Positions 56,741 to 59,593 of a DNA stretch of 64,000 nucleotides are shown here, piece after piece (positions within the stretch are counted from its first letter, which is position 1; each line of letters opens with the position of its first letter). The position numbers were made by a program, and so were the translations under genes. Source of the DNA: Escherichia coli (GTDB lineage Bacteria > Pseudomonadota > Gammaproteobacteria > Enterobacterales > Enterobacteriaceae); NCBI RefSeq assembly GCF_003790525.1, contig NZ_CP033633.1; one strand, given 5' to 3'. The notes beneath the pieces are model-generated. The model had not been told where the DNA came from, searched no databases, and saw nothing but the letters and a program-made list of their open reading frames with translations.

Positions 56741-56789
56741 GGAAAACCGACATAAGAACGTAAGCGGCTCGTCAGAACCGTATTGATAT

Positions 56790-58361
56790 TTACTGAGAGC
56801 TCAGATCAACTTTCCAGGGCAACAGATCGCGTACCCGGTTTGCCGGCCAGTCCTGGATATGTTCAATGACGTAACGCAGCCACTTTTCTGGCTCCACATT
56901 GTTCAGACGGCATGTGCCGATCAGCGAGTACAACACCGCCGCATGTTCACCACCGCTGTCGGAACCCGCGAACATCCAGTTTTTCCGGCCTACGGCCACT
57001 CCCCGTAAGGCGTTCTCTGCGATGTTGTTGTCGATTTCCACCCAGCCATTACTGCAGTACACGTTCAGTGCATCCCACTGTTTCAGCAGGTATGCGAACG
57101 CTTTTGCCGTATCTGAGTGACGCGACAGTGTTTTCATCTGTTGCTGTATCCAGTCATACAGTGACTGCATCAGTGGCGCGGCTCTGGCTTTTCTTGCCGC
57201 CAGACGCTGTTCTGCTGAACAGCCCCGGACCTCTGCCTCGATGGCATACAGTTCACCGATACGCTGCAGGGCTTCCGTGGTGATGTCGGTGGGCGCTCTT
57301 GCATGCACATCGTGGATTTTTCTCCGGGCATGAGCCATACACGCGGCTTCCGTTATTCTGTCGGATTCGTATAACACCCGGTAACCACCGTAAGCATCGG
57401 CCTGAAGCACACCGCTGTAACCGGCCAGGTGATTTTGTGGATGGATACCTTTCCGGTCCGGACTGTACGCGAACCAGACCGCCGGGGGCATCTGTGAACC
57501 GGCGTTGCGATCATCACGGACGTAGACCCACAGCCGGGCTGTCCGGGTTTTACCGCTGCCCGGCTCCTGGACCGGGACGGGGATATCATCGGCATGGACT
57601 TTACCGGGCATCAGCACATACTGGCGCAGGACGTCATACAGCGGCTCCAGCAGTTCAGCAACAGCACCTGTCCAGCGCCCCAGTGTGGCACGGCTCAGCT
57701 CCACGCCCTGGCGACGGTATATTTCTGACTGGCGGTATAACGGCAGATGGTCTGCATATTTCCCGGTGACAACATGGGCCAGAAGCCCCGCTCCGGCATA
57801 ACTGCGTGCAATGGGTTTTGAAGGCACCGGTGCCTGCACGATATGGTCGCACCGGCAACAGGCCTGTTTCGGACGTTGTGTTTCGATAACCTTAAAGGCA
57901 CTGCTGATAAGCTCCAGTTGCTCTGACACATCACATCCCAGTGGACTGAGTTCACCACCACAGGCCGGACAGCATTCCTCTTCCGGCCGGATGACCCGGG
58001 GTTCACGGGGAAGTGAAGCCGGTAACGGTTTACGGGCTGAAGACTGGCGCAGGGGGGATGGCAGTACCGGGTCATATTGCTCACCCAGCGTTTCTGCCAT
58101 TTCTTCCTGAAGTGCGCTGATTCGCTCCTGTGCTTCCTGTATCTGCCGTTCGGTTTTTGCGCGAAGTTTTTCTGAGCTTTTACCGAACTGCATACGCTGC
58201 AGTTTCGCAACCAGCGCCTTCAGCCGGTTGATTTCGGAAGCATAAGCCGCCACCCGCTGTGAGAGCAGGCGGTTGTATTCGGCCATCTGGCGGATGGTGT
58301 CCTGTTGCGTCTGCAACAGTGCCTGCAGGCGGGCATTCTCATGAGCAAGTGAGGTGTCCAT
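56790..58361 (-). CDS. tnpC: IS66-family transposase TnpC
   Basis: 523 aa intact; zinc-finger-like CxxC pairs and DDE core. Confidence 0.9.
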
Positions 58362-58380
58362 ATCCTCACTTTACAACGGG

Positions 58381-58728
58381 TTATATACGGATTCCAGCGC
58401 GTTCCGTTCGTTTCGGGTGCTTCCAGTCGATGCCCTCGAGAAGCATGGATAACTGAGCCGGAGTAAGGTGCACCTTGCCGTCACGGGTGACTGGCCAGAC
58501 GAAGCGGCCCCGCTCTAGGCGTTTGGTGAAGAGGCACAGTCCGTCACTGTCAGCCCACAACACTTTTATCTGGTCACCCCGGCGTCCGCGGAAGATGAAC
58601 AGGTGTCCGGAGAACGGGTCATCCTTCAGGACGTTCTGAACTTTTGAGGCCAGGCCGTTAAAGCCATTTCGCATATCGGTGATACCTGCAACCAGCCAGA
58701 TACGCGAACCTGCAGGGAGAGATATCAT
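58381..58728 (-). CDS. tnpB: IS66-family TnpB
   Basis: 115 aa. Confidence 0.9.
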   Translation of the reverse strand: MISLPAGSRIWLVAGITDMRNGFNGLASKVQNVLKDDPFSGHLFIFRGRRGDQIKVLWADSDGLCLFTKRLERGRFVWPVTRDGKVHLTPAQLSMLLEGIDWKHPKRTERAGIRI

Positions 58729-59405
58729 CAGTGGCTGCTCCCTTTTATTTCGCGGATAAGTGTCTGTAATAACGCCGGCGTCAGTTTACCTTTAAGCCTG
58801 AGAGTTCCGGCCGGCAGAACCAGCTCACAACACAGACTGTCGGACGGTGTATTTATCTGCTCTGGTTCCTGTGCGGGGGCCGGGATTTTATTATCCGGCT
58901 CCGGCGTTAACGTCACGGGAAGCAGTGCCGGCATATTTTTTCCGGAAGGCAGCAGGCCACCTTTCCGGTATTGATGGCGCCAGTTGAAGAGCAGGTTATC
59001 GTTGATTCCGTTTTCCCGGGCGATCTGCGCCACACAGGCTCCGGGCTGCAGTGACTGCTCCACTAAGGCGATTTTAAACTCATAAGGGAAGTTGGGCCGC
59101 CGGGGACGTTTTTTTACCACGGGGGCTTCGGATATAACGGTGCTTTCAGGACGTACGACTGGTACCGTGGAAAATTGTCCGTAAAGGCAGGCATCAAGTT
59201 CCTGCTCCGACATGCCTGCGGGCAAAGGCCACGAAAGGCCAGCTCTCCGAAAGCGCACGAACATACTACAAACTGTTGATTTTGATACACCCAGGCGACG
59301 CCCGGCCACAACCCGGGGTAAATGTTCTTCAAAGTGAAGACGTAAAGCTTCAGTGATCCAGGTCCGGTGTTTCATACGATAGTGTCCATTAAAAATGATG
59401 GACAT
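58728..59405 (-). CDS. tnpA: IS66-family TnpA (orfA)
   Basis: 225 aa with HTH; stop overlaps the tnpB start. Confidence 0.8.
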   Translation of the reverse strand: MSIIFNGHYRMKHRTWITEALRLHFEEHLPRVVAGRRLGVSKSTVCSMFVRFRRAGLSWPLPAGMSEQELDACLYGQFSTVPVVRPESTVISEAPVVKKRPRRPNFPYEFKIALVEQSLQPGACVAQIARENGINDNLLFNWRHQYRKGGLLPSGKNMPALLPVTLTPEPDNKIPAPAQEPEQINTPSDSLCCELVLPAGTLRLKGKLTPALLQTLIREIKGSSH

Positions 59406-59593
59406 TATTTTTGTAGAGCCGGAGGAAACAGACCAGACGGTTTAAATGAGCCGGTTACATAAGAACCCTCTGTTATCCTGAAACTCTTATATTTATATAA
59501 CTTGTGAAGGCGTTATGCACACAACCAATCTTCGCAAAGTCGGCGTCTCGTTGACATCCTCCACGCCCTGACGAATGTGGAGGAATGTCAATA

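Follow-up and report, generated by a model that had tools for sequence, protein, structure and literature searches.

An ISCro1-Type Element and Its 8-bp Target Site Duplication Downstream of trbC in an IncK2/Z-Type Plasmid of Escherichia coli

Introduction

ISCro1 was first named in Citrobacter rodentium; it is frequent in E. coli and Shigella and on the plasmids of both. By accounts attributed to Han et al. 2001 and Gourbeyre et al. 2010, IS679, ISEc8 and other members of the IS66 family reportedly have three genes, GTAA repeats and an 8-bp duplication. The element considered here lies in a stretch of 64,000 nucleotides of E. coli DNA (contig NZ_CP033633.1), referred to below as the window; it has the gene layout, the GTAA start of its repeats and the 8-bp duplication in common with IS679 and ISEc8, although it is a different element from either. 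With copies that NCBI annotates as ISCro1 family it shares length, terminal sequences, the gene order tnpA-tnpB-tnpC and the 8-bp duplication; it differs in 33-45 substitutions from the four copies compared and in the position of its insertion, which is absent from PLSDB and from the complete RefSeq E. coli genomes. ISCro1 has been published as an element of 2699 bp with an 8-bp duplication (PMC12115866). A further IS66-family copy, copy A (ISEc8-like), occupies window positions 1-1957, truncated by the edge of the window, and shares only 68-77% identity with the ISCro1 element; in plasmid pE16-3 copy A is 2441 bp long, with a split tnpC and flanks that do not match.

Results and Discussion

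Structure of the ISCro1 Element and Its Borders

The element, its target site and the neighboring transfer gene are as follows.

56752..56759: left copy of the 8-bp duplication, ATAAGAAC, single in the empty sites of pE16-3 (L001) and pLH10-b-1-A (L002)
56760..59458, genes on the minus strand: ISCro1-type IS66-family insertion sequence, 2699 bp
56760..56785: terminal inverted repeat, tnpC-proximal end, GTAAGCGGCTCGTCAGAACCGTATTG
56790..58361, minus strand: tnpC, IS66-family DDE transposase, 523 aa, intact
58381..58728, minus strand: tnpB, IS66 accessory protein, 115 aa, intact
58728..59405, minus strand: tnpA, IS66 accessory protein, 225 aa, intact
59433..59458: terminal inverted repeat, tnpA-proximal end, reverse complement GTAACCGGCTCATTTAAACCGTCTGG
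59459..59466: right copy of the 8-bp duplication, ATAAGAAC, abutting the element end
59594..61867, minus strand: trbC, conjugative transfer gene, 757 aa (NF041447 TrbC_conju, 1010 bits)

The outer ends of the element read GTAAGCGGCTC... from 56760 and ...GAGCCGGTTAC up to 59458. The tnpC-proximal repeat starts with 5'-GTAA and resembles its counterpart imperfectly, agreeing with it at 10 of the first 11 positions; the termini (GTAAGCGGCTC... and GTAACCGGCTC...) are imperfect repeats of the GTAA type found in the IS66 family. All three gene products score well above the cutoffs of the corresponding NCBIfam models: tnpC matches NF033517 (transpos_IS66) at 476 bits (cutoff 180; E 6.5e-143), tnpB matches NF033819 (IS66_TnpB) at 129 bits (cutoff 50) and tnpA matches NF038385 (IS66_access_TnpA) at 296 bits (cutoff 150). 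As in other IS66-family elements, tnpA and tnpB lie upstream of tnpC and overlap, the tnpB start codon and the tnpA stop codon having one base in common at 58728; tnpC starts 19 bp past tnpB.

The boundaries were fixed independently by four other copies (L002-L005), each of 2699 bp with identical ends and each flanked by its own 8-bp duplication (4/4), to which the window element is 98.3-98.8% identical at the nucleotide level (33-45 substitutions). The name ISCro1 follows the label "ISCro1 family" given to these copies by NCBI PGAP, rather than an ISfinder reference sequence. The window element is a genuine member of the IS66 family, has the 8-bp duplication expected there and is a complete, apparently functional copy.

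The initial annotation had placed ATAAGAAC immediately outside both ends of the element and had considered 8 bp to be the duplication size expected for IS66. Both statements hold, as the two copies abut 56760 and 59458 and their length is that of the family. On both strands of the window the 8-mer occurs three times, with two of the occurrences at the IS borders, where ~1.2 would be expected per window. The match between the flanks extends by two further bases (ACATAAGAAC), however the right-hand AC is the final two bases of the IS repeat (...GGTTAC) and the duplication is therefore 8 bp. The insertion is also downstream of trbC as had been noted, the distance from the stop codon to the duplicated target being 127 bp. 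The gene, which is annotated as trbC in pE16-3, is undisrupted, and no gene is broken.

The Uninterrupted Site in Sister Plasmids

Removal of the element and of one copy of the 8-mer had been predicted to give the empty site ...GACATAAGAACCCTCTG..., and this sequence was present base for base in related plasmids. The longer predicted site, ...CCGACATAAGAACCCTCTG..., was exact in pE16-3 and pLH10-b-1-A in the same IS-rich context, and exact 60-mers across the site matched both. No empty site lacking ATAAGAAC was seen in these plasmids: the flanks adjoin each other across a single 8-mer and are otherwise unaltered. A 421-nt empty-site query found 11 PLSDB plasmids with a match covering 80% or more of the query; they come from different countries, and in all of them the spacer is uninterrupted. 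The top two were 100% identical to the query over its full length. The window and pE16-3 are collinear, with 98.9-99.97% identity, and differ structurally in three respects: ISCro1, an IS1-adjacent deletion of 2.76 kb and a group II intron.

Neither ISCro1 junction was found in any PLSDB plasmid or in 5426 complete RefSeq E. coli genomes, making the insertion unique among the collections searched, which do not include the source record of the window itself. Several BLAST matches (H7-H12) that appeared to have the same right junction proved to be pieces joined across nearby different insertions, or the IS elsewhere on the plasmid. When aligned with the nikB-trbC spacer of canonical IncK2 (L003-L005), the empty site showed no similarity; the trbC 3' end and spacer of the window lineage differ from those of canonical IncK2. 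The host is a chicken-type IncK2/Z plasmid of E. coli.

From these comparisons we conclude that the non-coding spacer downstream of trbC in an IncK2/Z-type plasmid almost certainly received a complete ISCro1 by transposition of the element as one unit. The exact empty site in sister plasmids, together with the occurrence of the filled junction in no database record, argues for a late, lineage-specific simple transposition. By analogy with DDE transposases and the IS66 family, TnpC would cut the two strands of the target ATAAGAAC 8 bp apart, and repair of the gaps would leave ATAAGAAC on either side of ISCro1. That such an event followed the surrounding rearrangements had been proposed from the window sequence, and the sister plasmids bear this out: those with the empty site already hold the mosaic of IS2, IS1414/astA, IS100 and IS629-like elements, so the insertion is later than those rearrangements. 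The comparison gives the order relative to IS2, IS1414/astA, IS100 and the IS629-like elements; the other two differences from pE16-3, the IS1-adjacent 2.76-kb deletion and the group II intron, may be earlier or later than ISCro1. ISCro1 would have arrived after assembly of the nikB-trbC accessory region (mazEF, an IS1414 fragment, IS629-like::group II intron, IS100, IS2, IS1414/astA and an IS605-derived palindrome), as one of the latest events in the lineage. Because no gene is interrupted, the insertion is probably neutral.

Alternative Explanations for the Insertion

A comparison of filled and empty sites gives, taken alone, no direction, and precise excision via 8-bp repeats is possible in principle, which raises the question of whether the insertion is ancestral and pE16-3 and the other "empty" plasmids are products of precise ISCro1 excision that restored a single ATAAGAAC. 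We regard this as very improbable, since it would require repeated precise excision, a rare event, across 11 plasmids from different countries, whereas the filled site was found in none of the records searched and a single insertion is far more parsimonious. In addition, sister plasmids with ISCro1 at other positions, each with its own duplication, are indicative of ongoing insertion. Even less probable, in our estimation, is that the matching flanks are coincidental or that the IS was brought in by homologous recombination or within a larger acquired segment. It is true that ISCro1 copies without matching flanks exist: on metagenome contigs the 8-bp duplication was present at 11 of 17 two-sided copies and matching flanks were absent at the remaining 6, and they are also absent from the copy in pF1022-2, so recombination between copies does occur. 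However, the flanks agree at 8/8 bases at fixed borders, for which the probability by chance is ~1e-5, and recombination is difficult to reconcile with sister flanks that are contiguous, with exactly one 8-mer and nothing else changed.

A separate question is how the site was chosen. The window insertion lies 14 bp from a palindrome with a 31-bp stem, and other copies sit against terminator-like hairpins: the insertions in pLH10-b-1-A and pC16EC0241-1 overlap the base of hairpins that are perfect or GC-rich. These observations are anecdotal, and it was the window palindrome and hairpins at three other sites that suggested hairpin-directed targeting by ISCro1. We folded 46 tnpC-proximal and 98 unique tnpA-proximal flanks (144, from independent sites) and compared them with control windows from the same contigs. 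The ISCro1 flanks folded less stably than the controls (one-sided Mann-Whitney p for "more structured" of 0.996 and 0.99996) and only 2% reached -15 kcal/mol, as against 11.5% of controls, ruling out this candidate; that a hairpin determined the site is, in consequence, very unlikely. The bias seen in ISCro1 targets was toward AT-rich DNA with the weak consensus GNTTAANC (G-N-T-T-A-A-N-C). We know of no earlier report of this weak palindromic preference.

ISCro1 in the Plasmid Group

The transposition of a complete ISCro1 into this spacer is ordinary, already-known biology, and it matters little past bookkeeping: the filled versus empty site ...CCGACATAAGAAC|CCTCTG... is a clean, datable lineage marker. 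Plasmids pLH10-b-1-A and p135-2 have independent ISCro1 copies elsewhere in the same region, each with its own duplication, which shows that ISCro1 is active in the pE16-3-like plasmid group and currently active in poultry-associated IncK2/Z plasmids. Across the window and its sister plasmids ISCro1 is found at at least four different positions within ~4.3 kb. That the window copy itself may be able to transpose is suggested indirectly by its unbroken ORFs and complete ends, by the freshness of its duplication and by several separate insertions in sister plasmids. The insertion adds 2.7 kb of homology, a possible substrate for later recombination or plasmid fusion, and homology of this kind has been reported to fuse plasmids (PMC12115866).

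A Palindrome Beside the Target

The palindrome next to the insertion is accompanied by a second short segment.

56665..56676, minus strand: TTGACATCCTCC, reverse complement of the last 12 nt (GGAGGATGTCAA) of an IS200/IS605-family element
56677..56745: 69-bp perfect palindrome, 31-bp stem, loop GACATAA

The palindrome ends 6 bp before the duplicated 8-mer and 14 bp from the IS end, and its folding as DNA has a predicted energy of -39.3 kcal/mol (z = -13). Its left arm and loop are identical to the left terminus of an IS200/IS605-family element found on IncI2 plasmids, 45/45 positions agreeing with the terminus of this tnpA+tnpB element in two records (L010 and L057); the palindrome derives from the end of such an element. 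An origin as an IS1414 end was rejected, as IS1414 stops at 56632, 44 bp before the palindrome. Together the palindrome and the 12-nt right-end piece make up a gene-free mini-element of 81 bp (56665-56745), in which the left-end 45 nt and right-end 12 nt are in opposite relative orientation if the loop is taken as the marker. At least one other complete palindrome exists in different surroundings, in an IncF plasmid of K. pneumoniae (L056), where paired T>C / A>G changes compensate each other.

We tentatively suggest, while holding the contrary to be somewhat the more probable, that the 81-bp segment derives from the IncI2 IS200/IS605 element, probably IS683, and represents a PATE-like, non-autonomous form not described before. 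If so, the 45-nt left end may have become the 69-bp perfect palindrome and been kept perfect by compensatory changes such as those in Klebsiella, and the spacer downstream of trbC would be a relic or a landing pad of single-strand transposition. The loop sequence CCGACATAAG is repeated 43 bp away, overlapping the ISCro1 target; a simple model for this 10-nt repeat (loop plus flank) was sought and none was found.

IS100 and Other Insertion Sequences of the Window

The initial annotation regarded the ISCro1 copy as the only IS here with an intact duplication. This is incorrect, as IS100, which had not been considered, has CACTT on both sides.

49611..49615: left copy of the IS100 duplication, CACTT (5 bp)
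49616..51569, minus strand: IS100 (IS21 family), 1954 bp, the second IS of the window with an intact duplication
49682..50416, minus strand: istB (50416-49682; NF006616, 447 bits)
50461..51483, minus strand: istA (51483-50461; NF033546, 312 bits)
51570..51574: right copy of the IS100 duplication, CACTT (5 bp)

IS100 has TG...CA ends within 28-bp imperfect repeats (TGTCAACG...CGTGACA), and these, together with IstA, IstB and a duplication of ~5 bp, are the features of the IS21 family, for which a duplication length of 5 bp has been quoted (PMC10122671). The homologous uninterrupted site in another record (L008), ...GGTCACTTCTTCAAATG..., carries CACTT once. Like ISCro1, IS100 is thus complete, keeps its duplication intact and can be checked against an uninterrupted site; unlike ISCro1, it has a 5-bp duplication, istA and istB genes and an older insertion, the greater age following from the presence of the insertion in at least 12 related plasmids. 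As IS100 also retains an intact duplication, the description of ISCro1 as the last to arrive should rest on the empty-site comparison and not on the duplication alone.

For the remaining elements, the earlier observation that IS1, IS2 and IS629-like copies have no matching flanks was confirmed for IS1a, IS1b, IS1c, IS2 and IS629-like A and B, and comparison of the window flanks of IS1414 revealed no duplication around it either. Flanking sequences were also cross-matched among all IS, the three IS1 copies included, for exchanged duplications that would point to recombination partners, and none were found. The only extra cross-match was CACTT in the left flank of IS629-like B, which is probably due to chance. 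The 2261-bp insert in IS629-like B was considered as a possible IS with a duplication, but it proved to be a group II intron (Rfam RF00029), for which no duplication is expected; its ORF at 47000-48523 (507 aa) was taken to be the reverse transcriptase/maturase of the intron.

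The ISCro1 Insertion and Its Duplicated Target

As the initial annotation had noted, the 8-mer ATAAGAAC lies immediately outside both ends of the IS66-family element, and both border copies were read directly. The left border (56752-56779) reads ...GGAAAACCGAC-ATAAGAAC-GTAAGCGGCTCGTCAGAACC... and the right border (59445-59478) reads ...AATGAGCCGGTTAC-ATAAGAAC-CCTCTGTTATCC.... The 2699 bp between the two copies constitute an ISCro1-type element (56760-59458) terminating in imperfect inverted repeats (GTAAGCGGCTC... and GTAACCGGCTC...). The same length and terminal sequences were found in all four other ISCro1 copies taken from public plasmids (L002-L005), each with an 8-bp duplication of its own (CGTTTCCT, GTTTACTC, AATTAAGG, and AGGTTTTT), and this agreement leaves no freedom in placing the borders at 56760 and 59458. 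The duplication measures 8 bp, as two further matching bases (AC) at the right side belong to the IS end. On both strands of the window ATAAGAAC occurs three times, versus ~1.2 expected, and two of these occurrences are at the ISCro1 borders; given this rarity, chance identity at the second border has a probability of ~1e-5. Matching 8-bp flanks were also present in 11 of 17 two-sided ISCro1 copies in metagenome contigs.

The element has three intact genes, whose products all pass the curated NCBIfam cut-offs:

59405-58728, minus strand: tnpA, 225 aa, intact; IS66 TnpA NCBIfam, 296 bits
58728-58381, minus strand: tnpB, 115 aa, intact; one-base overlap with tnpA; IS66 TnpB NCBIfam, 129 bits
58361-56790, minus strand: tnpC, 523 aa, intact; IS66 transposase NCBIfam, 476 bits

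Its identity was judged against copies annotated by NCBI as "ISCro1 family," rather than the ISfinder type sequence, and the window element differs from those copies at 33-45 of 2699 positions. ISCro1 is described as 2699 bp long with an 8-bp duplication (PMC12115866). The window element is a textbook IS66-family (ISCro1) insertion, with all family-defining features that could be tested present.

What is directly seen is an element with intact ends, intact genes, an 8-bp duplication, and an exact empty site elsewhere. In the mechanism we propose, TnpC, aided by TnpA and TnpB, would attach the IS ends to the target at strand cuts staggered by 8 bp, and the ensuing repair would duplicate 8 bp of target. 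This scheme draws on DDE-transposase chemistry in general and on IS66-family work, reportedly that of Han et al. 2001 and Gourbeyre et al. 2010.

Empty Site and Timing of Insertion

The plasmid pE16-3 (NZ_CP119729.1; IncK2/Z; chicken, China) is collinear with the window at 98.9-99.97% identity, and only three structural differences separate the two: the window is without 2.76 kb (cmi/cma/cbi) adjoining IS1c at 20055/20056, it has a 2261-bp insert within its second IS629-like element, and it carries the ISCro1 copy at 56760-59458. In both pE16-3 and pLH10-b-1-A the flanks of that copy are contiguous, ...GGAAAACCGACATAAGAACCCTCTGTTATCC..., with a single ATAAGAAC, exactly the empty site that had been predicted. 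When 421 nt of empty-site sequence were compared with PLSDB, 11 plasmids aligned across 80% or more of the query, the top two at 100% identity over the full length. Neither the left nor the right ISCro1 junction was found among 72,556 PLSDB plasmids, nor was the left junction found among 5,426 complete E. coli genomes. This particular position is absent from the collections searched, but events of this type are already fully known.

Several plasmids (H2-H5) match the entire 54000-62000 context, including IS2, IS1414 with astA, and trbC, at 99.8-99.9%, minus ISCro1. Since they carry the same context without the IS, the ISCro1 insertion is later than the mosaic assembly. The alternative, in which the element was repeatedly and precisely excised from these plasmids, accounts for the data far less well than does a single insertion. 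The empty site and the already assembled context of H2-H5 therefore bear out the earlier proposal of simple transposition after the surrounding rearrangements.

ISCro1 Activity and Target Choice

Independent ISCro1 insertions, most with their own 8-bp duplications, occur in sister plasmids (including L002, L178, L179, L004, and L005) in the same accessory region or in the nikB-trbC spacer. The copy in pLH10-b-1-A (L002) is at the window-equivalent of 52433-52440; that in p135-2 (L178) is inside IS1414 at ~56453-56460, in opposite orientation and with the duplication TTCCCGAC; and that in pF1022-2 (L179), at ~56098, has no duplication and is joined to unrelated DNA. In one draft genome (Escherichia sp. 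MOD1-EC7003, L011-L055) ~45 contig ends stop in ISCro1, which indicates IS expansion. Judged from these sequences, ISCro1 clearly appears to be active in this plasmid group.

Because hairpins adjoin four of the insertion sites, the one in the window among them, we asked if ISCro1 targets hairpins. The folding of 46 tnpC-proximal flanks from the single Escherichia genome and of 98 unique tnpA-proximal flanks from metagenome contigs (L058-L177) was compared with that of control windows of the same contigs. Both flank sets folded less stably than their controls (median MFE -6.5 vs. -8.6 and -7.0 vs. -8.6 kcal/mol; p for "more structured" >0.99 in each), and hairpin targeting was rejected. The flanks are AT-rich (39-44% G+C), and 144 ISCro1 duplications yielded a weak palindromic consensus, G-N-T-T-A-A-N-C (~1.2 bits total; p < 1e-5 at six of the eight positions), on which ATAAGAAC is unremarkable, its score falling at the 81st percentile among random 8-mers. 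The pLH10-b-1-A copy sits at a perfect hairpin with an 18-bp stem (52441-52479, TTTCCTTGTGGTTTTTAT-cac-ATAAAAACCACAAGGAAA).

Other IS Elements

All detectable IS in the window were mapped and their flanks compared for duplications:

1-1957, cut by window start: ISEc8-like "copy A"; flanks in pE16-3 CATCCAGT / TCTCCTAC
8358-9125: IS1a; no 8-9 bp match
10610-11377, inverted: IS1b; no 8-9 bp match
15150-16459: IS629-like A; no match
20056-20823: IS1c; no 8-9 bp match; adjoins deletion relative to pE16-3
45315-45571: IS1414 fragment only
45570-49128: IS629-like B; no match
49616-51569: IS100 (IS21 family), 1954 bp; ends TGTCAACG...CGTGACA; istA and istB confirmed by profile match
53538-54868: IS2; flanks CTGTG / TTATT
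55319-56632: IS1414; flanks CCAGCGGAA / AAGTGAAGC; transposase gene split, astA within

This mapping agrees with the initial annotation that the IS1, IS2, IS629-like, and IS256-family copies are without matching flanks. Its claim that the ISCro1-type element is the sole IS here with an intact duplication fails, however, because IS100, which that annotation does not mention, carries an intact 5-bp duplication as well. CACTT is present on both sides of IS100 (49611-51574 including the repeats), in keeping with the 5 bp quoted for the IS21 family (PMC10122671). When IS100 and one CACTT were removed and the remainder used as a search query, a ~87%-identical homologous locus in NZ_CP124742.1 was found to run straight through (...CACGTCTGGTCACTTCTTCAAATGTT...). 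The IS100 insertion is common to at least 12 related plasmids and is older than the ISCro1 event, yet its duplication is intact, so that an intact duplication by itself gives no insertion date.

Copy A is a separate IS66-family element, 68-77% identical to ISCro1, with a tnpC broken into two ORFs (383-763 and 658-1920); its 2441-bp counterpart in pE16-3 is without matching flanks and adjoins a fragment of IS1414. In the window, the IS1414 fragment at 45315-45571 is an inverted 257-bp right end abutting IS629-like B. The one full copy of IS1414 (IS256 family) has a split transposase frame (55391-55840 and 55937-56599) and embedded astA/EAST1 (~56106-56219). The 2261-bp insert in IS629-like B (46344-48604), which pE16-3 does not have, is a group II intron based on an Rfam Intron_gpII match at 48527-48613 (+); its 507-aa ORF (47000-48523) presumably encodes a reverse transcriptase/maturase. 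The intron interrupts the IS3-family transposase gene, with borders ambiguous by ~9 bp. IS629-like B also contains an ALIL pseudoknot (IS3-family frameshift signal; 45905-45991, +), and the DNA split by IS100 contains a STAXI RNA (51839-51996, -), both above Rfam gathering scores. The 2.76 kb absent next to IS1c carries the genes for colicin M and for immunity to colicins M and B, and its loss would fit an adjacent deletion mediated by IS1.

Surroundings of the Insertion

No ORF of significance is interrupted by the ISCro1 insertion (56752-59466), whose target is 127 bp past the stop codon of the following gene:

59594-61867, minus strand: trbC; NF041447, 1010 bits

In the window an accessory region of 15 kb separates trbC from an intact nikB (41949-44651), whereas in canonical IncK2 plasmids the nikB-trbC spacing is only ~220 bp; in other plasmids this spacer holds ISCro1 or a restriction-modification system.

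A 69-bp perfect palindrome (56677-56745; 31-bp stem, loop GACATAA) stops 6 bp short of the duplicated 8-mer, which places it 14 bp away from the ISCro1 end, and it folds as DNA at -39.3 kcal/mol (z = -13). Its left arm and loop have a 45-nt identity to the left end of an IS200/IS605-family element of IncI2 plasmids (1822 bp, tnpA and tnpB), probably the IS683 of the literature. Immediately before the palindrome comes TTGACATCCTCC, a 12-nt sequence that is the reverse complement of the final 12 nt of the IncI2 element. The full palindrome also occurs in a different context in a K. pneumoniae IncF plasmid (L056, 2501-2570), where the changes T>C / A>G compensate each other. The region has the look of a single-strand transposon remnant, or of a miniature form derived from such an element, and 56665-56745 may be a PATE-like mini-element. 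The same 12-mer is found in a second hairpin (59551-59590, TTGACATCCTCCAC...GTGGAGGAATGTCAA) that immediately follows the stop codon of trbC and whose arms resemble the right end of the IncI2 element (GGAGGATGTCAA); this may be a second IS200/IS605 relic or the trbC terminator. The 10-mer CCGACATAAG, expected ~0.08 times per window, is present in the palindrome loop (56704-56713), and a second copy 43 bp further on (56747-56756) overlaps the ISCro1 target.
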